A stretch of DNA of 63,981 nt, filler included, from Octopus bimaculoides (taxonomy: Eukaryota): NCBI RefSeq assembly GCF_001194135.2. It is 6 parts of 5 records of this genome, joined end to end, with 100 filler letters (N's around TTAATTAATTAA, not from the genome) between each part and the next. Parts side by side here need not be neighbours in the genome. Positions count along the whole stretch, not along the records: positions 36,740 to 42,915 come from NC_068981.1; positions 43,016 to 53,475 come from NC_068999.1; 4 more parts are not named here. The stretch is one strand, 5' to 3'. Position 1 is the stretch's first letter. Every line of letters begins with the position of its first letter. Positions 13,321 to 63,981 of this stretch are shown piece after piece. Made by a program: the position numbers and the translations under genes. The notes below the pieces were generated by a model. The model was not told the DNA's origin, did no database searches, and was given only the letters and a program-made list of their open reading frames with translations.

Positions 13321-13665
13321 TTTATTCTTTTAATTGCTTCAGTCATTTGACTGCAGCCATGCTGGAGCACCAACCTTTAGTCGAGCAAATCGACCCCAGG
13401 ACTTATTCTTTGTAAGCCTAGTACTTATTCTATCGGACTCTTTTGCCGTTAAGTTACAGGAACGTAAACACACCAGCATCGGTTGTAAATGATGTTGGGG
13501 AGATAAACACAGACACACAAACATACACACACACACACACACATACATATATACGACGGGCTTCTTGCAGTTTCCGTCTACCAAATCCACTAAAAACGCT
13601 TTGGTCGGCCCGAGGCTATAGCAGAAAACACTTGCCCAAGGTTCTACGAAGTAATTCAATTGAAC
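13321..13665 (-). mobile_element. SINE family B (internal CA/TA microsatellite)
   Basis: Reverse complement of family-B core and tail (GACCCCAGGACTTATTCTTTGTAAGCCTAGTACTTATTCTATCGG). Confidence 0.9.
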
Positions 13666-16711: not shown

Positions 16712-17510
16712 TCACTTCAGAATGCAAACTATAATCAGCGCGTTTGCAAATAGTCATATTTTATCGCAAAATATAAACCCCTTTTGAATGCTCCTACTAC
16801 AGATGACACTACTACAAGGGCCTTAGAATAACACCCACGAAAATATTAAAAACGATATATTCAGAACAGCCACTACCCACGAATTTATTCAGAACAATTC
16901 CAATCACTACTGCTATAACAACAACAGATCACTTCTAGGTTACTTGACCATTTAAGGAGGCTCCGCTACTGTCATACCACTCCCGTCTTTTTCTTCTTTC
17001 TCTTCTTTTCCTCCTCCGCCTCCTTCTTCTTCTTCTTCTTCTTCTTCTTCTTCTTCTTCTTCTTCTTCTTCTTCTTCTTCTTCTTCTTCTTCTTCTTCTT
17101 CTTCTTCTTCTTCTTCTTCTTCTTCTTCTTCTTCTTCTTCTTCTTCTTCTTCTTCTTCTTCTTCTTCTTCTTCTTCTTCTTCTTCTTCTTTCCTTCGCCG
17201 TCTCCTTCTTCAGCTACTTCTCCTTGAACAATCAAAATCCAGAACCAACACCCCTCATGTTAAACATTTCTTCAGATCTGGTACTACCTACCTAGCGATC
17301 CATCACAAAAGTAATAGAGAGAAAGAAAAAATGAAAATGTCTCACCTATTTTAAAACTATGGAAATATTTTAAAACACCACTTCATTTAATTTTTCCACA
17401 ATTTAATTGTTTTTCATGCTTTTTAAACTTGTTTTTCAAGTTGGAAAAGTCGCAAAGATTGTAACCGGTACTAAAATGTTCTTCGTAATAAAATGGTTTA
17501 AGCATTTTCT
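16712..17510 (+). mobile_element. PLE 3' terminal copy (end of GIY-YIG ORF plus 3' UTR with pyrimidine tract)
   Basis: Colinear with 21609-22366 (+); inverted homolog of 17511-17900; contains ...FIAKYKP-type ORF end. Confidence 0.8.
17023..17191. repeat. Long pure (TTC)n tract inside the PLE 3' UTR
   Basis: Direct inspection. Confidence 0.95.
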
Positions 17511-19236: not shown

Positions 19237-19252
19237 ACTGGTAGGATACACT

Positions 19253-19976
19253 CATCAGCAGGAATTATCCACCATCACTAGGTTTTCAACGTGCCCTACA
19301 TGTTAACATCTACAAACTCAGACATCCCAAACTAAAGAATGAGTTACAACCAAAAGCCCTATGATACATATCTACACACAACTCCGAAACAATGAGGCCT
19401 TCGACACTATCCTCCAGAATATTCTTTTACTAAAAAGGGGCCATAAAAATAATCAAATCCTCCAAACGCACACCATCGTAAAGAGCTAAAGACAACCCGA
19501 GTCAATGAAAATTCTAACACAAGCCCAAGTACACTCGTCAACAACATCGAAAATGACAGTAGAAAATGCGGAAGACCTACCTGTGGTATATGAGTCAGCC
19601 TAATTTGGGGATCAGAGTTCTCCCTCAAACAGGGTCAACGTTTTACAGTGAAGAGCAACTTCACATGTTCTTCGTAAAACATGACATGTGTTAACTTGAT
19701 TAGGGTGTCGACTGCAATTCATTGGCCAAACTAAAAACAGTCTACGCCAGAGGATGACCGTACATAGGTCCCGGATACAAATACGGGAATATAGAAAAAT
19801 ACCATTAAGTGAACACATCGATATTTGCGCTACTAATGAACAACCCAACTTTAGAATTTTCCCCTTCAATAAATTTAGGGAGAATGCAACCTATAATCAG
19901 TGCATTAGCAAAGAATTTTATTTTATCGCAAAATATAAACCTCTTTTTTAAATGCTTCCACCACAGATGACACTAG
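19253..19976 (+). pseudogene. Second copy of the same PLE (thumb to GIY-YIG end), inverted relative to the first
   Basis: Reverse-complement homolog of ~17815-18610; KCGRPTCG linker knuckle; MTVHRSRIQIREYRKIPLSEHIDIC...FIAKYKPLF. Confidence 0.9.
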
Positions 19977-20009
19977 ACACTAAAGGTATGAACACGAATA
20001 AAATGAAAA

Positions 20010-21220
20010 GCGGAACAAGCAGTAAACAGTGCGATCGGAAAGCTAAGGCATGCCGATATAGTCGGAGCGATGCAAGAAGCAAGAGCCGGTCTATGGTTGC
20101 AAAACTTCAAACCATTTTGCATAAGCAGTGTAAAAGAGGTGAAAGCGGCAGTGGTACACGAAGTGAGAAAGGAGGAAAAAGAAAGGCGAAATGTACATTT
20201 GGTGCAATGTAGGCAACAGAGATAGTGCCTAAGATGGGAGGAATATATGGTCAGCCGCAGAATCTCATGGAAGAAACTTTGTGCTTGTAATATAGCAACA
20301 ACATCCTTTCTGACCCAGTCTAACTTCGACGTTTTGCATTCACCGGCCAATTTAGTCTGATGGAACATACAAACGACTGATGAATGTAGATGCAGAGAGA
20401 AAACGACGGTGAGACATGTTCTGTCAAACTGCAGGCTAGCACTAGACAGATATACATGGCATGATAATCAAGTCCTCGTTGTCATAAGCGCAGCATTCAA
20501 GAAGTTAGAGGGATATAATAGGGAAGAATACCCCAGAATGGAAAAGAGCGAAAGGAAATACTTCCAGCAGGGAAAAGGACATAAAAGACCAGGCCTTCAA
20601 AAAAAGTATACGAGACAGACGAAAGCTGGAAGAGGTACTGGGACCTGGCCCCGTGTTTGCAAAGACTTAATATTTCCACTCATAAATACAAGACACAAAC
20701 CGGACTTAATCCTATGGAACACAGAACGAAAAAACTGGAATTTTGCTAGAACCGACAGTGTCACGGGAAGAGAACATCGCTAATGCAGAGCAACGGAAGG
20801 AGAGAATGTATGAGAGATTAATCGAAGAGTGTGGGAAACAGGGTTGGACAGACGAATATTACCACCTGGCAGTGGGGCCTAGAGGCTTCATTGAAAGGAA
20901 AATGGCGACGTTATTCAAAAGAAGGTTTGCATTTTCGAGCTCAGAGCTGAATAAACTAATAAGGAGGATACAGAAAGCAGTTGACAAAGCCAGCTTTTGT
21001 ATATGACTGAATCGAGAAGAACTGAAATGGCTCGAAAGCCATAATATGCCGACTGGGAAATAGCGTCGCTAGGTCACGCTAAAACAGCGTTGCTGCTTGA
21101 CAGGTGGGCCAGAGGAACCATCTTGTTCATTGCGCGCCCTCCTCCTCGATAGTTAAAAGGCTTGTACCACAAGACAGCTAATCGGCTCTAGCTGCTGCAG
21201 CTGACACTAACACGACTGAT
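20010..21220 (+). pseudogene. HERO/NeSL-like restriction-endonuclease LINE, 3' part plus 3' UTR
   Basis: AVNSAIGKLRHADIVG; RHVLSNCRLALDRYTWHDNQVL; KPDLILWN; EENIANAEQRKERMYERLIEECGKQGW...AVGPRGF; ORF end near 21063. Confidence 0.8.
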
Positions 21221-21240
21221 TTGGAAGGTAGGTAAAAAGA

Positions 21241-21380
21241 GGGCGCGGGCCAAAATTATGCACCCTTCTCCTCCATTGGTCAGTAGAATGTTAGATTGTG
21301 TCACGTGACAGATAGCTGGCTCTGGCTACTGGAGCCTGGTGGCGAGTATATAAAGGGAAATTTGGCAGGGTGGCCATTCG
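21241..21380 (+). promoter_or_regulatory. Candidate RNA Pol II promoter cassette
   Basis: GC-rich GGGCGCGGGCC (21241), ATTGG = reverse CCAAT (21275-21279), palindrome TGTCACGTGACA (21299-21310), TATATAAAG (21347-21355). Confidence 0.4.
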
Positions 21381-21608
21381 CCCACTGACATTCGTCGACG
21401 CTGCATCGAAGAAACCAAACAAAAAGCCAAAGGGAAAAAGAAAAAAATACTGAAGACACCTCCAAAATTGGGGGTACCCTCGACGTCGAAAATGGTAGAG
21501 GAGTAGGAGCCGAAACCGAACCTGGTTCTTTCTGATGATGTTCTTAGCCACTAGATCCTTCAAATGAGCTGCTAAGGTAGCGAACCACGAAATGTGGCTG
21601 GAATTCCT

Positions 21609-22366
21609 CAACTTCAGAATGCAACTTATAGTCAGCGCATTTGCAAATAGTCATATTATAGCAAAAAATATAAACCCATTTTTGAATGCTCGAACAACAG
21701 ATGACACTCCTACAATGACCTTAGAATAATACCTGCGCAAATATTAAAAACGATAGATATATTCAGAACAGTCGCTACCCATGAATTTATTTAGAACTGT
21801 TCCTACCACTACTGCTACAACCACAAAAGGTAAATTTTAGGTCATTTGACCATTAAAGTTGATTCCACGGACAGCCTCTACCACTCCCGTCTTTTCCTCC
21901 ATTCCTTTTCTTCTTTTTCTCTTCCTCCTCCTCCTTCTCCTTCGTCTACTTTCTCCTCCACTTCTTCCTCTTCTTCTCCTCCTCCTTCTTCTCTTTTCCC
22001 CTCCTCCTCTTTTCCTCCTCCTTCTTCGCCTTCTTCCTCGGCTGATGCTGCATAAACGATCAAACTTCAGAACCAAATATTTCTTTGCACCCACGAAAAC
22101 TATGTTTTCAGATCTGTTACTACCTACTGAGCCTTCAGAAAGGAAAACAGAGACAGAAACCAAAAAGGAAAATGTCCTATTTATTTGAAGACTATGGAAA
22201 TATTTACAAAAAAATTTATTTAATTTTTTCTTAAATTTTTATTATTTTTCTTCTTAATTAATATCCGCCTTCGTTTTAATCTTAGTTCAAAAAGTCCAAA
22301 AGACAGAAACCGGTACTAATCGTTACAAAATGTATTTCATGATAAAATTATTTTAGCATTTTCTAC
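21609..22366 (+). mobile_element. PLE 3' terminal copy with imperfect CTT/CCT tract
   Basis: Colinear with 16712-17510; same 5' start ACTTCAGAATGCAA and similar 3' end GCATTTTCT. Confidence 0.8.
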
Positions 22367-22487: not shown

Positions 22488-22713
22488 TGTCTATCTATNN
22501 NNNNNNNNNNNNNNNNNNNNNNNNNNNNNNNNNNNNNNNNNNNNNNNNNNNNNNNNNNNNNNNNNNNNNNNNNNNNNNNNNNNNNNNNNNNNNNNNNNNN
22601 NNNNNNNNNNNNNNNNNNNNNNNNNNNNNNNNNNNNNNNNNNNNNNNNNNNNNNNNNNNNNNNNNNNNNNNNNNNNNNNNNNNNNNNNNNNNNNNNATAT
22701 ATATATATATATA

Positions 22714-22910
22714 TTTACTTTTATTTTTTACTTGTTTCAGTCATTAGACTGTGGCCATGCTGGGGCACCACCGTGAAGCGTCTTTAGTCGAATGAATCGA
22801 CCTCAGAACTTATTTTTCTTGTTTTAAGCCTGGTACCTATTCTATCAGTCTCTGTTGCTGAACTGCTAAGTTATGAGGACAGAAACACATCAACACTGGA
22901 TGTCAAACAC
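22714..22910 (-). mobile_element. SINE family B, 3' half
   Basis: TTGTTTCAGTCATTAGACTGTGGCCATGCTGGGGCACC is the reverse complement of the family-B tail. Confidence 0.85.
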
Positions 22911-22935
22911 AGACTCAATAACAAACACATACACA

Positions 22936-22977
<42 letters not shown>

Positions 22978-23049
22978 CTCACACACACAAATAAAGAAAA
23001 CAGAGATAAAGGTAAATATAATTGGTGTATGTGTATGTGCATGTGTATA

Positions 23050-33279: not shown

Positions 33280-33705
33280 TCTTTTGTCTATTGCTCGTTT
33301 CAGATATTAGAGTGTGGCCATGCCCGGGAACCAGCTTGAAGAATTTTAATGGAACGAGTCGCTCCCAGTACTTATGTTTTTAAACCTAGAACTTATTCTA
33401 TATGTCATATTTTTGCCGAACCGCTAATTTACGGGGGACGAAAACACACCAGCATCAGTTGTCAAGTGGTGATGGGAGAAATACACAGGCAAAAAACGAC
33501 ACACACACATATTAACTATACACACATACATATATATACAACAGGGTGCTTGCAGTTTCCGTCTACCAAGTTTATTATTTTCAATCAAAAGATTTTAGTC
33601 GGCTGGAAGGTAGAGTAGAACACACTAGATCTAAGTTCCACGCAGTGGGATTGAACCTCAGAACATCGGGCTTTGAAGCAAACTTCTTGCTCCACAGCCA
33701 CGCCT
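33280..33705 (-). mobile_element. SINE family B, diverged full-length
   Basis: Tail, microsatellite spacer, CAGTTTCCGTCTACCAA core and CCACGCAGTGGGATTGAACC head in reverse complement. Confidence 0.85.
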
Positions 33706-39026: not shown

Positions 39027-39477
39027 CTGGGTGTGTGGTAAGAAGCTTGCTTTCCAACCACATGAATCCAGGTTCCGTCCCACTGCGTAGCATCTTGGGT
39101 AAATGTCTTCTGCTATAGCCTCGCGCCGACCAAAACCTTGTGAGTAGATTTGGTAGACGGTAACTGAAAGATGGCCGCCGTATATATATATATGTTTGTG
39201 TGTGTGTGTGTGTGTGTGTGTTTGTGCGTGTGCGTGTGTGTCTGTGTGTGTGTGTGTCTGTGTGTCTACGTGTGTGTGTCTACGTGTGTGTGTCTTTAGA
39301 TCTGTGTTTGTCCCCTATCACCGCTTGACAACCGATGTTGGTGTGTTTAGAATAAGTATCAGGCTTAAATAAAAAGTCCTGGGGTCGATTTCTTCAACTA
39401 AAACTCTTCACAGCGATGCCGAAGCATGACCGCAGTCAAGTGACTGAAACAAGTAAAAGATATAAAAATAAAAGATG
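39027..39477 (+). mobile_element. SINE family B, full length with an internal deletion
   Basis: Head, core, (TA)/(TG) spacer and tail GTGACTGAAACAAGTAAAAG all present. Confidence 0.9.
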
Positions 39478-40041: not shown

Positions 40042-41355
40042 TACATATATACACATGTTGCCATTACAAAAATACTCTCCTCTGTATATTTGCTATAAGA
40101 ATTATTACTATCAGTAACTTGGCTTGCTACGTAGCTTTTAATAATACAAATACAGAAAAAAAAATATTGTAGCATTGAGGAAAGAAGGAAAGAAAGAAAA
40201 AAAAGTGTAATGAAGTTGAAAGAAATCAATTATGCAGTAGTTGTCTTGATACAGTCGTTGACTATTATTACTTCCACAACAATTCACAAAATCAATGGCA
40301 ATTAACCTTTAGGAAAGGGACCATTTCTAAGATGTACTATTCGGAACCATCTTCAAGCAGAAGATAAAACTGATGTAATTGTCCGAACGGTCATTAAATT
40401 TGAAACAGCCCATTAAAGCCCGACCTACACTTAGATCAATCGTTTAGATTACGGCAAACTTCTAAATCTACTAACACACAACTGAAGTGTAATAAATAAA
40501 AGCACACAGAGAGAGAGAAGAAACGGTGTGTGCGGGCGTTGTTAGAAAATCGCTGAATAAGTAACCATCTCGTATCGAGAAAATACTTCCACCACTAACT
40601 CCACTACCACCATCACCACCACCAACTATCATGTAGTACACAATTGAGTGTAAATAAATATGCAAAGTATCGTAATATATAACGAATTCTTCACATAATA
40701 AATACACTGAATGCTGTCTCCGCTAAGGGGAGAGTGAAATATTTCGATGTAAGTGTGGTTAGTTTTCACATATAAATGATGTTATAGGATGGTTTTTAAC
40801 GAATGCGGTGTTGTCTTCATGTCACCGAGCGCAGCCTAATTGACGAAATACCTGCAGTTACTCATAGCATATTTGTGCATATATTGCATATGTTTCCTAT
40901 TGTGTATGCGCGTATATATATATACATGCGTATATACAAGGATATATTTATATATAGGCGTATATGTATATATATATACATGTGTGTGTGTGCGTATATG
41001 TAGATAGATAGGAATAGAATGAAATGTATTTATATACATACATACATACATACATGCATACATACATATAAATATATATGAATATATATACATACATACA
41101 TATAAATATACATGAATATATATGTATATAGTCACCTATATACAATTACACCCACATGTATTCTTATACCTTTGTGTATGTTTTAGTTTCAAAATATGAG
41201 GTAGGATTTATTCGTTAGAATCTGTTACTACCCCTAGTTCGCTTCTTGTTTCCAGCAGAAGTTGTGATGTTTCTAAATTCTAAATTTCATTCCTTCTCTG
41301 GTGTCCAAATTCCCCCGTTAATGTCTACAAGATGCTAAGACTAGCGAATGGGTAA

Positions 41356-41513
41356 TACAGTTCTATATTTAAGAGATGAGGAATTATGTACATTATTTAC
41401 ATTATTTATAATTGACGGATATTTGTCCTCATCTGGTTTGTTGTTAACATAACGTTTCGGCTAATATACCCTCCAGCCTTCATCAGGTGTGCTGGGGAAA
41501 GTTCGAACCTAGG
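41356..41513 (-). mobile_element. Solo PLE pseudo-LTR-like repeat (family C) carrying a hammerhead motif
   Basis: Homologous to 44521-44670, 46053-46190 and 47185-47364. Confidence 0.85.
41446..41491 (-). ncRNA. Minimal type I hammerhead ribozyme motif (best-preserved core in the window)
   Basis: Minus strand: CACAC CTGATGA A GGCTG gagggtatat TAGCC GAAA C GTT ATGTT; core intact, 5-bp stem II, but a C-A mismatch at the first stem I pair. Confidence 0.7.
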
Positions 41514-41635
41514 TTGGGCAAGTGTCTTCTACTATAACCATGTGAGTGGATTTGTAAGGCGGAAGCTGAAGGAAGCTCGGCATACATATATATGTGTGTG
41601 TGTGTGTGTGTGTGCGTGCGTGTGTGTGTGTGTGT

Positions 41636-41666
<31 letters not shown>

Positions 41667-42008
41667 NNNNNNNNNNNNNNNNNNNNNNNNNNNNNNNNNN
41701 NNNNNNNNNNNNNNNNNNNNNNNNNNNNNNNNNNNNNNNNNNNNNNNNNNNNNNNNNNNNNNNNNNNNNNNNNNNNNNNNNNNNNNNNNNNNNNNNNNNN
41801 NNNNNNNNNNNNNNNNNNNNNNNNNNNNNNNNNNNNNNNNNNNNNNNNNNNNNNNNNNNNNNNNNNNNNNNNNNNNNNNNNNNNCCAAGCTGTTCGGCAA
41901 AAGTGACCGATAGAATAAGTACTAGGCTTACAAACAATAAGACCTTGGGCCGATTTGCTCGACTAAAGGTGGTGCTCTAGCATGGCCGCTGTAAAAGAAT
42001 AAAAGAAT
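41514..42008 (+). mobile_element. SINE family B, 5'-truncated, microsatellite spacer contains a gap
   Basis: TTGGGCAAGTGTCTTCTACTATA...; after the gap GCTGTTCGGCAAAAGTGACCGATAGAATAAGTACTAGGCTTAC...AAAAGAATAAAAGAAT. Confidence 0.9.
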
Positions 42009-42011
42009 CTA

Positions 42012-42606
42012 TATTATTATTATTATTATTATTGTTATTATTATTACTATTATTATTATTATTGAGTGAGAGAGCAGTGCATGCCATCAAAGTGACACTG
42101 GGGTAAAATATACGAAGCCCATTATGTCCATCATGACTACCAGTCTGCTAAGGGTACACCAGGCACATGCATCACAACCATATGTGCGCGACATGGTGAT
42201 CTCATATCATGATAAACAGCGTATGACCTCGCAGTTGGGGCCCAGTTAGAATTTTCTTCAGGTCGAATAGCCCATCCCGCTCAAAAGTTCCCTGAATAAG
42301 GTTTGTTTAAGGATGTTGAGCAAAACACCCATGTTTCCAAAGGTGAATTATTCAAACGCCAAAGAATTCCTCTCAACACATGGCTATGATGCTCCCCCAC
42401 TACTTCTGCTCATGATCAGAGATGCACATATCGTCAGCCACCAAGGGGCATGCTCAACTGGCTAAAGTCAAACAACTGACAAGCAAATCTTTGGTATTAA
42501 GCACGATATTTGCTGTAGCCCATCTTTTATACCAAGACAAAACAATGTACATAATAACACTTCCAATCAATTAAGATCAGAAGCCATGAGAGCTAGTGCC
42601 TGGTAC

Positions 42607-42607
<1 letters not shown>
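42012..42607 (-). mobile_element. Unclassified ~545-bp retroposon-like repeat with (AAT)n tail
   Basis: Discrete non-coding block bounded by (TAT)n tracts; on the minus strand ends CTCTCTCACTC-(AAT)n; recalled as a common octopus repeat, not verified. Confidence 0.55.
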
Positions 42608-42664
<57 letters not shown>

Positions 42665-42915
42665 TAGTTTTATTTTTATAACGTGCTTTCACTTCACTAC
42701 CGAGCGCAGCTCTGTGCACCTTGGGTATGTGCTGTGGTTTGCTGTGGTGCTCTTATGTTTACTGTATTGAAAGTGTTTTGCGTAGAATGTGTGCAGTACC
42801 CAGTAGTGCAATTTTCTGTATGTTATATATATTTGTAAGTCCTGGTGTTTTTGTTATGTATTTGTCTGAATATTTTTTTATTATACCTAAGGCACCTACT
42901 ATGATAGGAATTGTT
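42608..42915 (-). mobile_element. R4/Dong-like LINE 3' end with (AAT)n tail
   Basis: Near-identical reverse complement of 63677-63930; encodes TIPIIVGALG...QKIALLGTAHILRKTLSIQ*. Confidence 0.85.
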
Positions 42916-43015
42916 NNNNNNNNNNNNNNNNNNNNNNNNNNNNNNNNNNNNNNNNNNNNTTAATTAATTAANNNNNNNNNNNNNNNNNNNNNNNNNNNNN
43001 NNNNNNNNNNNNNNN

Positions 43016-43166
43016 GGCTTCTTTCAGTTTCCGTCTACCAAATCCACTCACAAGGCTTTAGTCGGACCGAGGCTATAGTAGAAGAAACTTGCCCAAGGTG
43101 CCACGCAGTGGGACTGAACCCAGAACTATATGGTTGGTGAGCAAGCTACTTACCACACATCCACTC
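43016..43166 (-). mobile_element. SINE family B, 5' half, low divergence
   Basis: CTTTCAGTTTCCGTCTACCAAATCCACTCACAAGGC..CTTGCCCAAGGTGCCACGCAGTGGGACTGAACCC. Confidence 0.92.
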
Positions 43167-44520
43167 AAGAATCTTTATTTATGCACATATGCAAGTGGTA
43201 TATATTTAGTATGGTCTCAATAAATATGATATGTCTATGACTTTTTCCGTTCTTTCAGACACCTGTGAAGTCGAAACACTTCTTGGACATGTGAAAGATG
43301 ACGAATGAAGACAATCCGTGAGAGGCAATTATTTCCAGAAGGCTGATGGTCTGAGGAAGAAGGACCGGTTATTGTGGTTTGTGTGAAGCTTGGGTGTTAG
43401 ACATAGCATGTTTAATGGAAGTGATAGATACGAGTTAATCAGATGAGAATGCATGCAAGTAATAAGAAGGAAGACATGTGTCTGCTATGTGTGAAGTTCA
43501 TATGATGTGCATATGTTCACTTTCAGAGAAAAATCTATACCGGTTAGATCGGTGGAATGGGTGGTGGGCCCTCTTTGAACTGTTACCCAAGTATCATTCC
43601 CCTTGATACCAAAGAGTCATTTCTTGTTTGTGTTTATCAAAAATTCTCGCGAGACTTTACTGAGACTACCTGTGACTTTTCGTGTTTTAATCCACAATGG
43701 GGACAAACACCAATTTTACTATGTGATCGGCTTGAAGGTAGCCTCAATATACAAATAAAGAATGTTTTTTTCCACCAATGCGGTGTTGAGCACTTATTTT
43801 CATTGTTCGACATTTACATATATATATATATATATATATANNNNNNNNNNNNNNNNNNNNNNNNNNNNNNNNNNNNNNNNNNNNNNNNNNNNNNNNNNNN
43901 NNNNNNNNNNNNNNNNNNNNNNNNNNNNNNNNNNNNNNNNNNNNNNNNNNNNNNNNNNNNNNNNNNNNNNNNNNNNNNNNNNNNNNNNNNNNNNNNNNNN
44001 NNNNNNNNNNNNNNNNNNNNNNNNNNNNNNNNNNNNNNNNNNNNNNNNNNNNNNNNNATATATATATATATATACATGCTTGTGTGCTTGTGTGTGTGTG
44101 TGCTTGAATTAGATAGAAATGATGGGTTATATACATTTATTTATTTATTTATTATTATAGGCTTACAACTTTGCCAGGTTTGCATTTTGATGCCTTCATG
44201 GTTGAATTTTATTTCTCGTGTAATCTACTGAAAATATAGATAACGACCCTCACAATGATATCTTCATCAGAGCCAAAATAAATCAACTACGAAAGTAAAA
44301 AAAAAAAGAAAAGGAAGTGGATGGACTTTAGTCAGTGTGGAATTTATATAGAACTAGATCGTCTGTTTCTAGATCATTTGTTTAAATTATTGGGCTCTCT
44401 AATCACAGGCAAATAGCATTGACATCCAGTAAAGAAATTTCATGCAGGTTTTAAAGTTTATTGCTATATGTTTGGAAACTATGTTAGGTCATTTGCATAG
44501 TTTGGAAGATTACTAATATG

Positions 44521-44667
44521 TATGCATTATTTACATTTGACGGATATTTGTCCTCATCTGGTTTGATGTTAACACAACGTTTCGGCTCATGTACTCTCCA
44601 GCATTTATCAGATGTTCAGGGAGAATTTAGAACATGGGTTCTCATTCCGAACGTATTTTTCCGATGT

Positions 44668-44670
<3 letters not shown>
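44521..44670 (-). mobile_element. Family C repeat (downstream pLTR-like copy), decayed hammerhead at 44571-44616
   Basis: AACAT CTGATAA atgctggagagtacatgagcc GAAAC GTT GTGTT: G8 changed to A and stem II broken, stem I retained. Confidence 0.8.

Positions 44671-44752
<82 letters not shown>
44669..44752. repeat. Palindromic (AAT)n-(ATT)n microsatellite
   Basis: An AAT run directly followed by its complement. Confidence 0.95.
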
Positions 44753-44755
<3 letters not shown>

Positions 44756-46052
44756 TAGGTAATTTCTGCACAGAAGATCAACATTTCCTATTGGTATACT
44801 AGTGCGTTCTTTTAGACAGGTGTCTGTCACCAGTTTTTCTTGAAGCACTGATAGTGCTTCATCAGTTGGGACTTTGGTTAACAGACTTATCACATATAGA
44901 CTCACCATCTGGTTGAATTCAATGGGTGTTTCCTTGATCAATTCTGTGAAGTGGATGGAATTCCTCACGTACGATGTTGACTTTCCTACTAATGGACTGA
45001 TTGTATCCACAAGGAAGCGGCTCAGTGGATGACATATTGAACCTCTACAGCTCACTATTGGTCCTAATGGAATACCGTCCTTGTGAATATTAGGGAAACC
45101 GTACATGTATGGTAGCTTACTGTAGTGATGAGTCAGTTGTCTGTACTTCATTGGTATAAAGTGATCCTTGTTTTTGATCACGACCTGTGACAACTTCCTC
45201 TCTGTTTTCAGAGTTGGGTCTTTCTTTACTTTATAGTAGCTACCATCACTTATGTGACTTTCCAATTTTTCAGAGTAGTCAGACTTGTTCATCACTACTG
45301 TAGCATTTCCCTTGTACACTGGAAGTATTATGATGGAATTGTCACTCTCTCTCAAGTGTTTTGATAGCGAAACTTTCTTCCTTAGTGATGTTTGGTTAAG
45401 GAAGTTTCGCTTTTTCTAGTACCTGTCTCACTTTCTACCTTAGTTCATCTCCCTGAGCTTTTGGTATCTTTATGGCTATCTCTTCAACGGGAGCTATTAT
45501 GTTCAAGTATGTAATGCGCTTGATAGTTGTCGCAGAGTTGAGACCTTTCTTTAGTACTGCTTCATCAGAGATTTCTAGATGTCGGCTACTTACATTATTA
45601 TTGCTTTCACGGATGGGTGACGGATTTCAGTCTCTGAAATTTGAGCTTCATAAATTTCTTAATCAGGCGCGTATTCACCTTTTCAACTTCTTTCTCCTAC
45701 GACTTTTCTTCATCTTGTTGGGTTCTCTTTCTATCATCTCTGGTTATTCTCCTGTGTAATGAAGATAACTTCTCTCTGATTTCGTTATTTCGTTGAATGT
45801 TTTTTTTTTCTTTTCCAACAGTCATAATAGATTCCCTCACAGACGAGGGCATGTCCTGCCATTTCCGCAACTCTTCGAGCTTTATATGAATCCACTGGTG
45901 TCATTATATTCAAACCAGGTGGTATTACCTGTCGTTGAGTCTCTACACCTACAGAAGAAAGTTAGATGGTTTGAAGGACGAGCTAGTTTCTGATGGAGTT
46001 TCTCTGTATGTCTCCATTGAAGCCTAATGTTGGCTCCGTACCAATTACATAA
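44753..46052 (-). pseudogene. Poseidon-like Penelope element: ORF N-terminus through RT motif A, 3'-truncated
   Basis: LHQKLAR..NHLTFL; TPVDSYKARRVAE; ILPVYKGNATVVMNKSDY (ADKG-like); YGFPNIHKDGIPLGPIVSCRGS; MVSLYVISLLTKVPTDEA (SFDV.SLFT.VP-like). Confidence 0.9.
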
Positions 46053-46190
46053 TACAGTTCTATTTTTCAGAGATTAGGAATTATGTACATTATTTAAATT
46101 TGATGGATATTTGTCCTCATCATTTTTCTTCTTAACACAACGTTTCAGCAGATGTACTCTACAACCTTCATCAGTTGTCCTGCGGATGAA
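46053..46190 (-). mobile_element. Family C repeat (upstream pLTR-like copy), decayed hammerhead at 46134-46179
   Basis: GACAA CTGATGA aggttgtagagtacatctgct GAAAC GTT GTGTT; runs directly into the PLE ORF (ATGTACATAATTCC..GAACTGTA). Confidence 0.85.
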
Positions 46191-46378
46191 TATAAAATAA
46201 TAGACAGAAAACACCGCTGAAAAATACAAAAACTAAAAGAGGCAGTACATATGCCAGGGCATAATAACCTCCTAAGCAGACCTAGTGCAGACATGAGTTG
46301 CATATGGGAACTGGTATTAAGGAAGGATAGGAAAATATTAGATTTATAAGCCCTAAAATTCACTGCATAAATACCCAC

Positions 46379-46450
46379 AGGCATATGGCGTTGTGGTTAT
46401 TTCGCAGGCTACTAACCCCAAAATTCCGAGTTCGATTCCAGGCAGTGATC

Positions 46451-46481
<31 letters not shown>
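46379..46481 (+). mobile_element. Mini tRNA-derived SINE (head only) with (AAT)n tail
   Basis: A-box-like TGGCGTTGTGGTTA, B-box GAGTTCGATTCC, then (AAT)n from 46453. Confidence 0.7.
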
Positions 46482-47180
46482 GATGGTGGCTCTAATCTGT
46501 GCTGCCCAATAGCAGGCACTAAGAACACACTACATAAAATACAGAATAGACAACACTTCAGAAAGTAATAAGTGCAGAATCTGTGGACAAAACGGTGAAA
46601 CCGTATGGCATATTATCAGCCAATGTACGCCACTAGCCCAGAAGGAATACAAGAGACGCCACGGCAATATAGCCAGGCTTGTCCATTGCACACATTGCAA
46701 CAAGTATGGACCTGACAGAGCGAAAATAGAAATGCAAACATTCTATGGGATTTTATGATTCAGTGCGACCATGAGATTGAGAATAGGAAGCCGGACATAG
46801 TGTTAATTGAGAAAGAAAGCAAACTATGCTGGATCATAGACATAGCATTCCCAGCTGACAACAAGGTATGCGATATGGAAGAAAGAAATGTCGAGAAATA
46901 TGACAGGTTAGCTTGGGAAGTTAAGCAGTTGTAGTCGATGAAAAAGGTAGGTGTAGTACCAATAATTGTCGGAGCCCTGGGAACAGTGAGCATACATCTT
47001 GAGAACAAATAGGGGCTGCAATAAGGGTGGAGAACTTGCAGAAAACAGCACTGCTTGGAATCGCTCGAATATTCCGGAAGGTGCTCGAAAAATAAGAGGC
47101 GTTACCTTAGTTCACTGGTAGTGAACAGCTGACACTGTAGTACATCTTCAGAGTTAGAAGCTGTACAAAGGCAACAATAA
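46482..47180 (+). pseudogene. R4/Dong-like LINE 3' fragment (CCHC knuckle plus RLE endonuclease)
   Basis: CRICGQNGETVWHIISQCTPLAQKEYKRRH; ILWDFMIQCDHEIENRKPDIVLI; IIDIAFP; VPIIVGALG; LQKTALLGIARIFRKVLEK*. Confidence 0.9.
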
Positions 47181-47184
47181 TAAC

Positions 47185-47364
47185 TATAACATCGGGCAAA
47201 TATCTTAGGAATGAGAACCCAGGATCGAAATTCCCCCAGGATACTTGATGAAGGCTGGAGTGTACATCAACCGAAACCTGAAACAAGATGAGGACAAATA
47301 TCCGTCAAATGTAAATAACCTAAATAATGTACATAATTCCTCATCTCTCAAATATAGAACTGTA
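47185..47364 (+). mobile_element. Solo family C repeat, hammerhead decayed (47240-47277)
   Basis: GATAC TTGATGA aggctggagtgtacatcaacc GAAAC, then stem III and stem I 3' strand deleted; ends GAACTGTA. Confidence 0.85.
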
Positions 47365-48429
47365 CTAATACGTGTATACAATTGCAAATTGAACTCCTAC
47401 TTAAAGTCCACACTTTCATTTTTCTCCTTGTGAAACCCACATAGTACACGAAATCCGCCTTTTAAATAATTGGATGAAGGGAAGTCTATTCTATGTTTTT
47501 TTTTGTTAAAAGCTATTGGAGTAATATAAGTATGTGTGTGTGCGCGTGTATGTACATAAATGTATATAGAGGAATGTATACATGTGTATGTATTTATGTA
47601 TGTATGTATGTATACATGCATGGTGTATTACTGTATGTACGCATGTATGCAGTGTGTTTCATAGATTTAATAAAAATATTTCCGTAAACGAGTAAACCTA
47701 TGTTAAATATATTTTGTGACGGAGGCAAATCAAATTGTAAGCATGTTATATGAAATAAAATATTTTTTTCTGTACAAATACGTGTTGTCTGCATTCGCAT
47801 TTATCTTTAACTCATGGATATTACATATTAATGCAATACAGCAGCTGTTACAAAAGTTTTAATGAAAATTCTCAACTAAAGAACAGCTTTCAAAACAATT
47901 ACTGCTATCAAATTGGCTGTGAATCACAATTCCACATGGTTTTTACTTTTGCTAATCCTATTATATTTTCTATTTTTGTATGCAATATGCAACAATGTGT
48001 ATAAAGCAAGTGGGCTTTGTATCACAATTGAATATTTTATCTTTATAACAATGCCTATGGTAAACATATTCAAGGGAGGCGATTTTCTCGACTTATTTTA
48101 AAATAACAACATTTACGTCCAATCACATCCTAATTTCTTCAACAAAAGGACTTAGATCGGAATGTAGTCCAAGTTATACTATACCTAGAATATACCGATA
48201 ATGGCTGAAATGGCTTTGTTCATACTTGTGTTCGACCATGGTTGGATCAACGAAAGAACCACAAAAGACAGTATGTTTGCCACATGATAGACATCTATCT
48301 AGTAGATTGTTTTACATGAAATCTCGTATTTGAAAAGTAACAATAAAATGTTTCAGAAATGTTAGAGAACGGATTTATTTAATCAAAGTATGATCCATGT
48401 TCATTTATGAAGCTTACCCAACGTTTCTC

Positions 48430-49400
48430 TGTGTTATATATTCCACCTTAAAAAGAAAAAAAAATCATCATTGGCTCTGATAAACTGTCCGAATGCTTCA
48501 ATTACTTCTTCTCTATTTAAGAATGTTTTATTGCTTATGAAAAACTCAAAATGCTTAAATAGGTGATGATTAGTAGGAGAAATTTCATCGAAATAGAGAG
48601 GATGTTGCAAAATCTCATAGTTCAGACTTTGCAACTTTTGGACCGTAGCTTGAGGAGTGTGAGGATGTGCATTGTCGTGGACCAAAATTGTGTCCTCACT
48701 ATTCACTTGTCTGTGTTGCCTCTTTTTCAAATTCTCATGCATACAATCAATTTCCTGCCAATATGATGTTGTTGTTACCATTTTTCCTCGTTGCAAAAAT
48801 GAATAATAAATACCTCCCTTTGCAGACCATCATACGGTGACCACTAACTTTTTAGGGTGCAATGGTGGATTTGATTAGTGTTTAGATGGCTCTCCTGCAT
48901 CTAATCACTGTCCTGTTCTCCTGCTGTTGTCAAAGAGTATCCATTTCTCATCACAAGTAATGATTTGATACAAAAATAGTCTTTTTCCAATCGAGAAAGC
49001 AATAATGAGCATACTTCGAGGCGTCTGTTTTTCTTTTTTAAAATCTCCTTTAGTTGATGTAGAACAAACCTATCCATTTCCTTGAATTTTCCAATTTTTT
49101 ACAGGTTTTCAAAAACAGTTGTGCGAGATGTTTGAAAGTTTTCGAAGCTTTGTTCTCGGACTTTGTGCAGCCAAAGTATTTAATCCATCATGCCGAATAA
49201 CTGATGTTAGCCTACCCCTTGGTTTATTTTCAAGGCTATCATCTCCTGAACGAGAGCTTTGGAACGAACCATCTCTGAACAGTTCGAATGTCAACAATAC
49301 AATTACCAAAGACCCGCTTGATATTCCGTAGCGCTTGTACTCATACGAGAAAATCACTCAACATAGTTTGGTTATCATTTTCGTAATGTCTGTGGATACG
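48430..49400 (-). pseudogene. Mariner transposase pseudogene, nearly full span
   Basis: IFSYEYK..SRSGDDSLENKPRGR (N-terminal HTH region); ILVHDNAHPH; HPLYFDEISPTNHHLFKH (HPPYSPDLSP.D-like). Confidence 0.9.
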
Positions 49401-54676: not shown

Positions 54677-55047
54677 GGAGGCGCAATGGCCCAGTGATTA
54701 GGGCAGCGGACTCGCGGTCATAGGATCGCGGTTTCGATTCCCAGACCGGGCGTTGTGAGTGTTTATTGAACGAAAACACGGCAGGGGTGGGCAGGGGGTG
54801 GCGGCGAACTCTGCTGTACTCTTTCACCACAATTTTCTCTCACTCTTTCTTCCTGTTTCTGTTGTACCTGTATTTCAAAGGGCCAGCCTTGTCACACTCT
54901 GTGTCACGCTGAATCTCCCCCGTCAACTACGTTAAGGGTACACGTGTCGGTGGAATGCTCAGCCACTTGCACGTTAATTTCACGAGCAAGCTGTTCCGTT
55001 GATCGGATCAACTGGAATCCTAGTCGTCGTAACCGACGGAGGGCCAC
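54677..55047 (+). mobile_element. tRNA-derived SINE, family D, near full length
   Basis: tRNA-like head GGAGGCGCAATGGCCCAGTGATTAGGGCAGCGGACTCGCGG..GGTTTCGATTCCC with A and B boxes; GC-rich body ending CGTAACCGACGGAGGGCC. Confidence 0.85.
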
Positions 55048-58726: not shown

Positions 58727-58871
58727 AGGCGCTGGCGCGGGTGTATGGTAAGAAGCTTGCTTTCCAACAGCATGGTTTCGGCACTTTGGGAAAATAGTTC
58801 TCTACTATAGCCTCGGCCCGATCAAAGCCTTCTGAGTGCATTTAGCAGACGGAAACTGAAGGAAGCCCGCC

Positions 58872-58911
<40 letters not shown>

Positions 58912-59025
58912 NNNNNNNNNNNNNNNNNNNNNNNNNNNNNNNNNNNNNNNNNNNNNNNNNNNNNNNNNNNNNNNNNNNNNNNNNNNNNNNNNNNNNNNNN
59001 NNNNNNNNNNNNNNNNNNNNNNNNN

Positions 59026-59120
<95 letters not shown>

Positions 59121-59342
59121 TTGTGTGTGTATGTAGGTATTATGTATGTACGTGTGTGTGTGTTTGTCATCCCCATTACTATTGACAACTGGTGTTGGTG
59201 TGTTTACGTCCCCTTTAACTTTGAGGTTCGGCAAAAGATACCGATAGAATAAGTACTAGGCTTAAGAAATAAGTCCTGGAGTCGAATTGTTCGATTAAAA
59301 TCCACCAAGGCGGTGTTCCAGCATGACTGAAACAAGTTAAAG
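58727..59342 (+). mobile_element. SINE family B, full length, expanded internal (TA)/(TG) with gap
   Basis: Head, core GCAGACGGAAACTGAAGGAAGCCCGCCG and tail CCGATAGAATAAGTACTAGGCTTAAGAAATAAGTCCTGG. Confidence 0.9.
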
Positions 59343-61640: not shown

Positions 61641-63480
61641 AAATACTAGCAACCCAATTGAATGAGTGTGTCCAGAAAGGTACAGTCCCCGCGTGGATGG
61701 TGACTGGGAGGACAGCACTTATAATGAAAGATACAAGAAAGGGGAATACTGTGGGAATCTACCGTCCCATAGCATACCTAAATATAATCTAGAAGATACT
61801 CACTGGAATATGTGCGGCAAAGACATATACTTTCCTGGCACAGGAAGAAATACTACCAAGGAAGCAAAAAGGATGTAGGAAGAGTTCTCAGGGTACCAAG
61901 GATCACCTGGTCATCGATAAAGCAGTTTTGAGGCATTGTAAAAAAACATCATACAAACATGTCTATCGCTTGGATTGACTTTAAGAAGGCATATGATATG
62001 GTGCCTCATTCTTGGATCGTTGATTGTCTGCAGATGTTTGGTGTTGCTGACAATAACACAAATTTTCTGATGCATTGCATGAAAGAGTAGAAAGCCAAAT
62101 TGTTCTCAAGTAATGTATTCCTTGGAGAAGTTAATATTAAAAGGGGAATCTTCCAAGGTGACTCGTTTTCTCCGTTCCTTTTTGTAATTGCACTAATACC
62201 TATAACAATGAAACTTAGGGGGTTACCGATGTGGGAAGAAAGGCCCATCATTGGACCATCTTCTGTTTATAACCTGAAATTGTTTGGGAAATCTTAAAAA
62301 CAGATAGATTCCTCAACCAAAATAGTCCAGAAGTGTGGTAGAGACATCGGTATGGAATTTGGGATTACCAAATGCTCAGTAATTAATATGAAAAGAGGGA
62401 AGAAGCATCCTGCAGAGGTTTGCGGTTACCAACAGGAGAGACTGTGGATAAACCCGACGGTAGTGGGTATAGATATTTAGGGATTTTGGAGCTGGATGAC
62501 ATTCTACACAGAGAAATGAAAGTTAAGGTCAGCGAGCCGTATCAAAAAAGGGTGAAGATGGTGTTGAAATCCAACCTGAATGCCAAAAATGTGATCGCCG
62601 CAATGAATATCTGGGTAGTTGCAGTTGTCGGATATAATGCGTCCATCCTCAAATGGACTAAGGAAGAAATATTAACACTGGACGATAGAAGGACGAGAAA
62701 GTTGATGAAACTGCATGGGGCGCTACACCCTTTGATTGGAATACACAGGACCTTACGGATAATACAAGCGTCGTGGGCATGGATTGAGCGAGGTGATTTG
62801 AAGCGTACTACGGAAAGCCTGATCATTGCTGCACAAGACCAGGCTCTCGCTACAAATTCAGTGAAGTATAACATCTATAAAATTTCTAACACCCAAAAAT
62901 ACAGACTCTGTGGAAAGAGTGTGGAAAATATGACCCACTTGGTAAGTGGACATGAGAGCCTTGCACAAAAAGAATACAAGTGCCACCACGATAAAGTGTG
63001 TGTGTATCTTCATTGGCTTTATGTCATAAATGCCAATATGAAGTAACAGTAAACTGGTATGAAAAAGTACCGAGAAAAGTTATGCAGGAAGATGGAAAAG
63101 TAACGATACTCTGGAACTATGGTTTTCAGACGGATCGTATAATCGAACACCGTCGCCCGGATATTGCCATATTGAATAAGAGAGACAAATACTGTCAGAT
63201 CATTGATGTAGCCATACCAAACGACATGAATGTTGTGAGTAAAGAGGTTGACAAATTCAACAAGTACTCCGAATTGACAGTGGAAATGGCAAGACTGTAT
63301 AGGATGCGAGAGGGTAATGTAAAGGTTATACCAGTGATACAACTGGAAATCCCGTGCAAGATTGATGTCTTACAGAAAGCAGCCTTATTGGGCACAGGGC
63401 ACATCTTAAGGAAAGAATTATCTAGTTGAGGTCCTTGTTGTGACTTGACAGATGTCTAAAGACTCCGGTCCAGTTTTACG
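61640..63480 (+). pseudogene. R4/Dong-like LINE: RT, CCHC knuckle and RLE endonuclease, 5'-truncated
   Basis: GTKDHLVID; AWIDFKKAYDMVPHSW; RGIFQGDSFSPFLF; YRYLGILE; ESLIIAAQDQAL; RRPDIAILNK; IIDVAIP; LQKAALLGTGHILRK; stops and frameshifts. Confidence 0.92.
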
Positions 63481-63660: not shown

Positions 63661-63981
63661 ATATCTAAAAACAGAAACAATTCCTATCATAGTAGGTGCC
63701 TTAGGTATAATACAAAAATATTCAGACAAATACATAACAAAAACACCAGGACTTACAAATATATATAACATACAGAAAATTGCACTACTGGGTACTGCAC
63801 ACATTCTACGCAAAACACTTTCAATACAGTAAACATGAGAGCACCACAGCAAACCACAGCACATATACAAGGCGCACAGAGCTGCGCTCGGTAGTGAAGT
63901 GAAAGCACGTTATAAAAATAAAACTACTGAACAATAATAATAATAATAATGATAATAATAATAATAATAATAATAATAATA
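63661..63981 (+). mobile_element. Young R4/Dong-like 3'-end copy between (AAT)n tracts
   Basis: LKTETIPIIVGALG...LLGTAHILRKTLSIQ*; near-identical to 42662-42915 (-). Confidence 0.88.

Follow-up and report, generated by a model that had tools for sequence, protein, structure and literature searches.

A minimal hammerhead in the reading frame of a probable Penelope-like pseudo-LTR in Octopus bimaculoides

A short unit with the boxes of a hammerhead ribozyme occurs four times (c1 to c4) in the stretch of Octopus bimaculoides DNA analysed here (63,981 nt, hereafter the window), which raises the question of whether it is a ribozyme repeat that spreads on its own or a part of a larger element. Our reading, to which we assign a probability of about 0.88, is that the unit represents the 3'-terminal pseudo-LTR of a retrotransposon of Penelope-like type (likely clade: Penelope/Poseidon), with a minimal type I hammerhead in frame within the first codons of the element's ORF. 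On this reading, a single inverted composite insertion likely accounts for c2, c3 and c4, and a 5'-truncated insertion likely for c1.

Four damaged copies of one unit

Blastn recovered the copies at the places and on the strands given in an earlier note on this DNA: c1 at 41356-41513 (-), c2 at 44521-44670 (-), c3 at 46053-46190 (-) and c4 at 47185-47364 (+). Pairwise identity among them is 73-85% (E 1e-22 to 1e-42), and no fifth full copy was found by blastn in the 64-kb window. The proposed boundaries hold for c1 and c4, whereas the limit of c2 lies at ~44528 instead of 44521, and c3, although correctly placed and oriented, is not a bounded unit, its sequence continuing into an ORF. The 5' edge of c1 abuts a SINE-like fragment, head to head, and no other element parts were found near this copy. 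The features of the locus are read as follows (strand in brackets where one applies).

41356-41514 (-): c1, solo 5'-truncated 3' end of a Penelope-like element, with tail (blastn, relatives' tblastn)
Core from 41486, predicted cut after 41451 (-): c1 hammerhead
44510-44527 (approximate): candidate target-site duplication, left copy, 16-18 bp, decayed
44528-44670 (-): c2, pseudo-LTR end without tail; its end equals the family 3' end at 47318 in c4 coordinates
44645-44643 (-): in-frame ATG of c2; damaged core from 44611, predicted cut after 44576
44669-44752: (AAT)n(ATT)n microsatellite in the position of ~1.5 kb of absent element sequence (remaining RT, endonuclease and UTR)
44755-46052 (-): decayed Penelope-like ORF, covering the N-terminal domain plus the RT's first half (65% identity, E 5e-73)
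46053-46186 (-): c3, 5'-truncated upstream pseudo-LTR, continuous with the ORF
Core from 46174, predicted cut after 46139 (-): c3 hammerhead
46179-46349 (+): inverted copy, C-terminal ORF end (end of the GIY-YIG region; E 2e-10 to 5e-8)
46350-46451 (+): 3' UTR / upstream part of the pseudo-LTR
46452-46481 (+): (TAA)10 microsatellite within the pseudo-LTR
46482-47180 (+): later-inserted 3' piece of a different non-LTR element, which has a zinc knuckle and a motif of restriction-like endonuclease type
47185-47364 (+): c4, 3' pseudo-LTR end of the inverted copy, tail at 47319-47364
47211-47213 (+): in-frame ATG of c4; damaged core from 47245, cut site deleted
47358-47376 (approximate): candidate target-site duplication, right copy

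That every copy is damaged, as had been claimed, was confirmed for each individually. The first stem I pair is mismatched in both c1 and c3, with the core intact in both and stem II additionally weakened in c3; in c2, G8 is altered and the base of stem II is broken; in c4, C3 is altered and an 11-nt deletion takes out the cut site. All four local hammerheads are predicted to be inactive.

A minimal hammerhead in the majority sequence

The column majority of the four copies, computed by script, reproduced the consensus of the earlier note (stem I GACAC/GUGUU, CUGAUGA, an extra A, stem II and GAAA-CG-UU). It has a stem I of 5 bp and a stem II of 6 bp closed by G-C, and it combines the hallmarks of minimal hammerheads: CUGANGA and GAAA boxes, an extra base after A9, G10.1-C11.1, a palindromic 15.2-16.2, a UH cut triplet, and stems I and II. 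It passes a minimal-hammerhead descriptor, the relaxed form of which none of 20,000 dinucleotide shuffles passed. The individual copies match this majority, which was built from the same four sequences, at 88-94% identity. In the raw window, the strict descriptor gave 0 matches, no single copy shows the full set of hallmarks and the relaxed descriptor matched c3 only. Rfam reported no hammerhead at c1 and c2, nor among the window matches listed (150 of 209).

In public reads (two DNA contig runs and two RNA runs), each of the four runs shows a restored 3' half of the hammerhead (340, 337, 938 and 759 records; agreement 0.64-0.67). The four-copy majority and the reads together support the previous proposal of a minimal type I hammerhead in Penelope pseudo-LTRs, with an intact majority behind broken local copies. 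Furthermore, a hammerhead of the same build was found in 3 of 12 related loci, one per element, either near the ORF start or downstream of the ORF, while the remaining 9 gave no hammerhead match that was used. Changes on both sides affect 8 of the 11 stem pairs across 6 sequences, a count reached by 0 of 500 shuffles, which is partly circular, since the outside sequences L001-L003 came from scans demanding core or stems. In the two RNA runs (fragmented, apparently unstranded, ~6% of each), neither read starts nor read ends pile up at the cut site. For the dimer, a fold with two hammerheads reaches -24.5 kcal/mol, compared to -34.4 for the predicted minimum, in which core bases are paired and stem II strands exchanged; the double hammerhead is thus the less stable fold.

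A Penelope-like element with the hammerhead in its reading frame

Using RT-bearing relatives as queries, tblastn placed the ORF N-terminus and RT at 46178-44755 (-) and the ORF C-terminus at 46179-46334 (+). The ORF at 44755-46052 (-) contains frameshifts and stops and ends short of the catalytic motif; residues 18-99, 213-296 and 296-486 of the relative P0004 match this decayed ORF plus c3. Identity of 58-65% to RVT_1-bearing relatives with a DKG motif marks the enzyme as a telomerase-related RT, and the relatives' profile matches telomerase RT weakly (E 0.003) and a group II intron-like RT (E 4e-5). Locally, the DKG motif has decayed, and its codon (place 45316) is not the same in the read majority as in the window. 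From the GIY-YIG region, only the last ~55 residues are present in the window; full-length relatives have a GIY-YIG-type motif with two cysteines, and the Pfam GIY-YIG model passes for the distant P0013 alone among five scanned relatives. A zinc-finger linker between RT and EN separates Neptune and Nematis from Penelope/Poseidon. This linker is absent in all 5 close relatives, and the corresponding region is missing from the window; the clade assignment is one by motifs in the relatives and not by a tree with named references.

The unit itself encodes the N-terminus of the Penelope-like ORF, with the entire hammerhead in frame. Starting at an ATG that c2 and c4 share, the majority has 55 open codons, and tblastn aligned P0004 residues 18-99 across the hammerhead of c3 and residues 15-44 across that of c1. 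The in-frame hammerhead peptide also begins the relatives P0004/P0174, P0178 (spotted by eye) and P0055, and a strict peptide pattern occurs in 2 of 170 N-termini compared to 0 of 1,299 background windows. The candidate ATG lies 34 nt before the core and the predicted cut at +70; as the whole hammerhead is within the reading frame, any cleavage would remove the start codon.

The right-hand copies as a likely composite insertion

Upstream of c4, on the same strand, lie the C-terminal end of a Penelope ORF and a 3' UTR, interrupted by a LINE fragment (46482-47180), which we take to be of the R4/Dong type. c4 thus terminates an inverted and truncated copy into which another LINE has inserted, which leaves c1 as the only solo copy. 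Upstream of the inverted ORF end, 404 reads in X21 extend as family ORF, and family reads have (AAT)n upstream of the unit (loose ends before 47198); as repeats were skipped in the read analysis, no read connects the 3' UTR with c4 over the (AAT)n run. The pseudo-LTRs are found in both direct and inverted arrangement and include the ORF start, and c2, c3 and c4 likely form a single inverted composite insertion at 44528-47364.

Alternatively, the three right-hand copies could be separate adjacent insertions or the product of a misassembled region, which we regard as rather unlikely and which would alter the history of the locus, not the identity of the unit. The window contains many gaps (6,764 N), none of the contigs examined spans the locus, and Penelope copies tend toward neighbouring insertion sites (PMC6765202). 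A further point in favour of this alternative is the microsatellite junction at 44669-44755. The microsatellite beside c2 is inverted relative to the family, and the link from the RT fragment to c2 skips ~1.5 kb across it, unspanned by any of the reads. Against this alternative stand three features shared with the single-event structure described in the available text of PMC3846280, i.e. a candidate target duplication bracketing 44528-47364, an inverted copy that overlaps c3 by a few bases at the junction (~46179-46186), and a tail at one end only. The candidate target duplication is short, AT-rich and was noticed by eye before testing; among 20,000 random window pairs, 96 scored at least as high, as did 36 of 8,024 and 14 of 8,024 windows with one side fixed, corresponding to a chance of 0.2-0.5%.

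A possible tRNA-like A/B-box module

In the upstream part of the pseudo-LTR (+), an A-box-like motif (46386-46396) and a B-box-like motif (46428-46439) lie 43 nt apart, with one mismatch allowed relative to patterns that we assume to represent these boxes. This pair, at tRNA spacing and one of just 5 such sites in the window, could mean that the pseudo-LTR holds a captured tRNA-type Pol III promoter, and that a short RNA composed of a tRNA-like head, the AAT run, the hammerhead and both RT start sites represents a Penelope-dependent SINE or a source of hammerheads acting in trans. The box pair seems to be a part of the family, since it has about the same read depth as the adjoining ORF end and its 5' edge lacks a large unlike loose end among those listed. 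One contig joins at the 5' edge of the head. Furthermore, sense-strand runs of at least four T number 0 in 1,881 nt, compared to 6-27 in 9 of 10 related stretches and 2 in L002. However, this deficit is not significant (89 of 1,000 dinucleotide and 304 of 1,000 trinucleotide shuffles), two other retroelement fragments in the window are equally poor in T-runs, and the parallel in L002 is at chance level (750 of 2,000 shuffles) and comes without an Rfam tRNA. Neither ARAGORN nor Rfam reported a tRNA at the A/B-box region, and a fixed 5' end with unrelated flanks at ~46375 was not found, as there is no unlike loose end among the best-supported ones and no depth step at the 5' edge of the head, such as an abundant SINE would be expected to leave. 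We regard this reading as very unlikely. In a further model, which we consider distinctly unlikely, a single pseudo-LTR of this Poseidon-type family would unite a start codon and an entirely protein-coding hammerhead with a Pol III promoter derived from a tRNA. Short Pol III RNAs containing the ribozyme and both RT start sites would then be Penelope-dependent SINEs and, in trans, the partner needed by a dimer-only ribozyme to detach the start codon from full-length mRNA. If true, this arrangement would tie autonomous Penelope elements to tRNA-bearing non-coding repeats that mimic their mode of insertion.

Two 3' ends, copy depth and the role of the hammerhead

In all four runs, two family-wide 3' ends were found, behind 47318 and 47364, followed by unlike AT-rich flanks (agreement 0.42-0.51). 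They lie 49 and ~86-95 nt past the predicted cut and delimit a tail of 37-46 nt, which is present in c1 and c4 and absent in c2; these ends are the known Penelope 'tail' signature, a tail of 30-40 bp on one side, and not a ribozyme cut site. Read depth at the 3' end is ~80-150x that of the RT body and declines stepwise from there, and the simplest account of solo pieces like c1 is insertion with 5' truncation.

It is very improbable that the unit is a non-autonomous retrozyme-like element, excised by hammerheads, circularised and reinserted by the Penelope enzyme: while the excess of end-pieces over RT bodies, the isolation of c1, the common start point of c2 and c4, and the pseudo-LTR origin proposed for animal retrozymes (preprint 10.64898/2026.07.22.740005, available text) would fit, there are no tandem units in 41000-47600, the hammerhead is of the minimal Penelope type and not the canonical type of coral tandem retrozymes (PMC7229834, available text), the common 5' point coincides with the border of the (AAT)n run seen in the family, both 3' ends lie beyond the cut, the stepwise fall in depth is what truncation predicts, no back-joint at the cut site occurs among 15 of 258 joints (in libraries unsuited to circles), and the unit is coding rather than ORF-independent. 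The earlier suggestion that the family 'spreads as solo units, possibly retrozyme-like' is not upheld, since c4 ends an inverted copy, the unit codes for the ORF N-terminus, tandems are lacking in 41000-47600 and the 3' ends correspond to the tail.

For a Penelope-like pseudo-LTR, the available text on the Anolis Poseidon element (PMC11167929) suggests how insertion may proceed. The element protein would nick AT-rich DNA, reverse transcription would begin inside the RNA at one of the two sites downstream of the hammerhead, most events would stop early and leave end-pieces of 150-200 bp, and a second, inverted strand would yield two outward-facing ends, one with and one without a tail. Lacking a stem III (palindromic ACGU), a single hammerhead would not cut by itself; cleavage would require a dimer or the help of a protein. 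Uncut RNA would serve as mRNA and template. With the start codon 70 nt upstream, cleavage would detach it from the RT; thus, the hammerhead is likely a late processing step or an off switch rather than a step required for insertion.

Comparison with known systems

Published precedents exist for hammerheads in pseudo-LTRs and for their overlap with the ORF start, as well as for tails and inverted ends. In the largely open-access main texts searched, neither a hammerhead of this family nor a Poseidon pseudo-LTR with a tRNA-like module is described. According to the available text of Cervera and de la Pena (2014, PMC4209133), which names no cephalopod example, although its supplements may list one, the minimal hammerheads of metazoan Penelope pseudo-LTRs are likewise of type I, with a short helix I of 5 bp, a long helix II of 6 bp, an extra base between 9 and 10.1, G10.1-C11.1, a palindromic 15.2-16.2 and no loop 3, and mostly occur as single dispersed copies tied to truncated elements; relative to the available text, only the sequence family differs. 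Animal non-LTR retrozymes are also short type I hammerhead repeats related to Penelope pseudo-LTRs but, in the portions of PMC7229834 and preprint 10.64898/2026.07.22.740005 available to us, they are tandem, non-coding and expressed as circles, whereas the Octopus unit is not tandem, codes for the ORF N-terminus and gives no sign of circles in the reads examined.

The arrangement of the locus resembles that of Penelope elements of Adineta vaga (Arkhipova et al. 2013, PMC3846280) and the scheme that Craig et al. (2021, PMC8557442) give for such elements generally, as far as the available texts describe them: two pseudo-LTRs in direct order beside an inverted one, ends that overlap slightly where the inversion joins, a (here candidate) target duplication around the whole, a one-sided tail, pseudo-LTRs that include the first codons, internal deletions and solo pseudo-LTRs. 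It differs from them in its longer inverted arm (ORF end and UTR), which is divided by a later LINE insertion, and in the (AAT)n run and A/B-box-like motifs of its pseudo-LTR.

A close parallel to the in-frame hammerhead is PAc, the Poseidon element of Anolis carolinensis (Frangieh et al. 2024, PMC11167929, available text), where the hammerhead also overlaps the ORF start, two 3' ends within the ORF define a tail (the first at +111-118 in PAc and ~+119 here), targets are AT-rich and RNA-seq ends at the cut site are likewise lacking. In PAc, however, the start codon is positioned at stem II, C3 and G8 precede it and cleavage falls at +26, whereas the candidate ATG of the Octopus unit precedes the core by 34 nt, placing the predicted cut at +70 and the whole ribozyme in the reading frame. 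The tail also differs, at 37-46 nt in the Octopus unit. The locus adds one further animal family to a well-described association and serves as a teaching example of inverted ends, a one-sided tail, a candidate target duplication and 5'-truncated end-pieces. The small new point is the entire hammerhead within the reading frame in this subclade, a placement that makes the role of Penelope hammerheads testable as a translation switch.

Four damaged copies of a minimal hammerhead motif

An earlier note had described four copies of a repeat with a hammerhead ribozyme motif (hereafter the unit), and all four were recovered at the positions and on the strands that it had given:

41356-41513 (-): copy c1
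44521-44670 (-): copy c2, which ends at ~44528
46053-46190 (-): copy c3
47185-47364 (+): copy c4

The copies share 73-85% pairwise identity (E 1e-22 or better), and no fifth full copy was found in the 64-kb window. The column majority of the four, built by script, reproduced the consensus motif of the earlier note: a 5-bp stem I, CUGAUGA, one extra A, a 6-bp stem II closed by G-C, and GAAA-CG-UU. This majority passes a minimal-hammerhead descriptor that none of 20,000 dinucleotide shuffles passes. No single copy passes the strict descriptor, in agreement with the claim that each is damaged: c1 and c3 keep the core and have lost the first stem I pair, c2 is altered in the core and broken in stem II, and c4 combines a core change with an 11-nt deletion that takes out the cut site.

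Rfam returned no hammerhead in the window among the matches listed (150 of 209), which were all microsatellite-driven microRNA matches, and none at c1 and c2. Since Rfam also returned no hammerhead in four related metagenome loci that carry the motif or a candidate for it (L001, L002, L003, and L011), this result is uninformative for the minimal type. Furthermore, the motif had no match in the prokaryote genomes searched, and the viral sequence collection searched contained no relative.

The unit is part of a Penelope-like reading frame

The protein of a related reverse transcriptase (RT) element, P0004, aligns to c1 with residues 15-44, and the alignment of its residues 18-99 crosses the c3 hammerhead and extends into the ORF. 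An in-frame candidate ATG is present in c2 and c4, 34 nt upstream of the core, and across the majority this reading frame stays open over 55 codons. To detect in-frame hammerheads at the peptide level, a strict pattern was composed after seeing P0004 and P0055 (another such protein), the sequences it matches; it occurs in 2 of 170 N-termini and in none of 1,299 background windows, and was used instead of a loose pattern, which proved unselective (5/170 vs 17/1,299). Moreover, P0178 was seen by eye to represent a third family with an in-frame hammerhead peptide. A protein search with residues 1-130 of P0004 returned only P0004 itself. The candidate ATG may be the true start, or an intron may intervene, as it does in the Drosophila Penelope.

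An inverted, truncated copy at the locus

A 224-codon frame at 45415-44744 (-) has 20 relatives among 775 candidates, the best with 65% identity, and those relatives that were scanned contain an RT domain; the RT fragment of the window itself was not recognised by Pfam. Using the proteins of the RT-bearing relatives in tblastn, the locus was mapped as follows:

From the hammerhead of c3 to 44755 (-): Penelope-like ORF, with the N-terminal domain followed by the first half of the RT
After 44755, in (-) order: (AAT)n(ATT)n run, then c2
From 46179 (+): C-terminus of an ORF of this kind, with a short overlap (a few bases) with c3
After the end of the (+) ORF: ~100 bases of UTR, (TAA)10, a 700-base fragment of another LINE, then c4

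Because the ORF end, the UTR, and the LINE fragment precede c4 on the (+) strand, c4 forms the distal terminus of an inverted copy that is truncated at its 5' side; c2 and c4 are thus a pair of ends that face outward. A decayed candidate duplication of 16-18 bp flanks the c2/c4 block; it was spotted by eye first, and 96 of 20,000 random pairs reach its score. Copy c1 stands alone, with no other element part beside it. The junction at 44669-44755 is without explanation and without a read aligned across it, which speaks for c2, c3, and c4 being separate neighbouring insertions, or for a misassembly; we consider this reading unlikely and favour a single composite insertion with an inverted arm.

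At the break of the Penelope RT (44752-44758), a short junction motif (repeat family D9) was observed that is shared with the non-LTR ends at 42610-42915 and 63676-63981, and that may mark a microhomology deletion at this site. A further fragment of the same LINE type as the one splitting the inverted copy is found at 62840-63297 (+), with ~39-40% identity in protein.

Hammerheads in related elements

The motif was identified in 3 of 12 metagenome loci, in L001 and L002 by the descriptor and in L003 by a looser scan; the three hammerheads have the same build and different stems. In L002, the frame crosses the hammerhead without a stop, and stem I contains an ATG; in L003 the motif lies ~200 nt upstream of the ORF. 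At positions 180-5862 of L002, a Penelope-like element that looks intact is perfectly repeated head to tail (100% identity, period 2,791), and a perfect minimal hammerhead stands at each tandem junction; so exact a duplication may be an artefact that arose when a circular or tandem unit was assembled. L003 (1-2959, 99 bases) and L011 (1-3717, 123 bases) have identical terminal repeats, and are thus elements assembled as circles or tandems. At 3569, L011 also contains a candidate that resembles a hammerhead more loosely, with a palindromic loop. A candidate tRNA gene in the pseudo-LTR of L002 was rejected as chance-level.

Across c1-c3 and L001-L003, 8 of 11 stem pairs change on both sides, which none of 500 shuffles reaches, in a test that comprises only 6 sequences, is partly circular, and excludes the L011 candidate and 8 other loci without a usable hit.

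Family ends and RNA in public reads

Four runs, two of DNA contigs (organisms A and B) and two of RNA reads, were aligned to 44760-47420 at 80% likeness, and the best 15 of 258 joints and the best 24 of 3,085 loose ends were considered. Among these, each of the four runs has loose ends before 47281 in which the 3' half of the ribozyme is restored, and loose ends behind 47318 and 47364 that enter unlike AT-rich DNA. The family therefore possesses two fixed 3' termini, of which the first is shown by c2 and the second by c1 and c4. They lie 49 and ~86-95 nt past the predicted cut, or at ~+119 and +156 to +165 from the ATG, the range of the second resulting from a 9-nt duplication that differs between copies. 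Upstream of the unit, most records contain (AAT)n, not the LINE of this locus. Furthermore, upstream of 46184 the ORF continues in 404 reads from one of the RNA runs, and thus the inversion junction is local. The depth at the 3' end is ~80-150x that at the RT, a rough gradient, since contig depth does not equal copy number. In the RNA runs, 80-83% of the aligned reads run into unlike sequence, the two directions are equal, and no pile-up of RNA ends was found at the predicted cut site in either run. An opposite-strand joint (47281-47321) is supported by 64 and 56 reads in the two RNA runs and is absent from both DNA contig runs; its probable source is a single expressed locus elsewhere that has a short end-piece in inverted orientation.

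A Pol III promoter in the pseudo-LTR might be proposed from an A/B-box pair at 46386-46439; the window contains 5 such sites, and by read depth this one seems part of the family. However, this pair has no tRNA model match, no depth step was found at the 5' edge of the A/B-box head, and the deficit of sense-strand T-runs (terminator avoidance) is not significant, which makes such a promoter improbable. Further A/B-box pairs are located at 54679-54687 and 63535. The retrozyme-like spread as a solo element that the earlier note had suggested is improbable as well, since there are no tandem units in 41000-47600, the unit is coding, and its ends are misplaced for it.

Other repeats in the window

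Repeat detection across the window was dominated by microsatellites. Another Penelope-like RT fragment, far more diverged (18572-19265 (-), 26-30% identity to the proteins used for the tblastn map), is surrounded by long inverted and direct repeats (16714-22364). The segments 42610-42915 and 63676-63981 form an inverted pair with 97.7% identity, corresponding to the 3' terminus of a young non-LTR element that finishes with an (AAT)n run. Between two (ATT)n runs lies a 540-base non-microsatellite stretch (42063-42600) that occurs only once in the window and may be another microsatellite-targeting repeat. A decayed mariner-type transposase is found at 48434-49098 (-) (Pfam Transposase_1, E 8e-8). 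In addition, one SINE-like family is abundant (70-90% identity between copies), and a fragment of it adjoins c1 head to head, at the 5' edge of c1. Copies of the family include, among others:

13320-13652: SINE-like copy
22707-23008: SINE-like copy
33335-33701: SINE-like copy
39028-39472: SINE-like copy
41517-41580: SINE-like copy
41890-41996: SINE-like copy
43016-43166: SINE-like copy
58739-59309: SINE-like copy

A possible route of insertion

The anatomy, the reading frame, the two 3' ends, and the AT-rich flanks were observed directly. Based on the Poseidon element of Anolis carolinensis (PAc) and the available parts of PMC4209133, the element endonuclease would nick AT-rich DNA, and the RT would begin at an internal RNA site past the ribozyme. 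If it stopped early, end-pieces such as c1 could be left, and an inverted second strand could give rise to structures such as 44528-47364. The ribozyme has no stem III of its own, and its palindromic ACGU permits a double hammerhead, with a computed energy of -24.5 kcal/mol vs -34.4 for the predicted dimer minimum. Because this minimum is more stable and pairs core bases, the double hammerhead would need help to fold. This agrees with the low or protein-assisted activity described in parts of PMC4209133 and PMC11167929. Since the predicted cut lies 70 nt past the candidate start codon, cleavage would likely end translation of that RNA. For PAc, cleavage is not needed for insertion in vitro, according to the sections available of PMC11167929.

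Comparison with known Penelope elements

Octopus genomes are known to contain Penelope elements in abundance (PMC13282606 and PMC8967140, in part), and 235 Rfam hammerhead matches are given for a squid genome in the accessible text of PMC6962438. No description of this hammerhead-bearing Penelope family was found in the literature, supplements and repeat databases lying outside the search. Pseudo-LTR hammerheads, their overlap with the ORF, tails (an extra 3' segment on one end only), inverted ends, and solo pieces are already in print. As far as the consulted portions of PMC11167929 extend, the ribozyme of PAc likewise overlaps the ORF start, with the start codon at stem II, whereas the candidate ATG here lies 34 nt before the core. 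Reverse transcription of PAc has one start at +111-118 and another farther on by the length of a tail, and PAc also has no pile of RNA ends at the cut site (PMC11167929, same portions). Finally, rotifer Penelope elements (PMC3846280) and the general scheme for such elements (PMC8557442), each as far as available, present the same structure as the c2/c3/c4 block.
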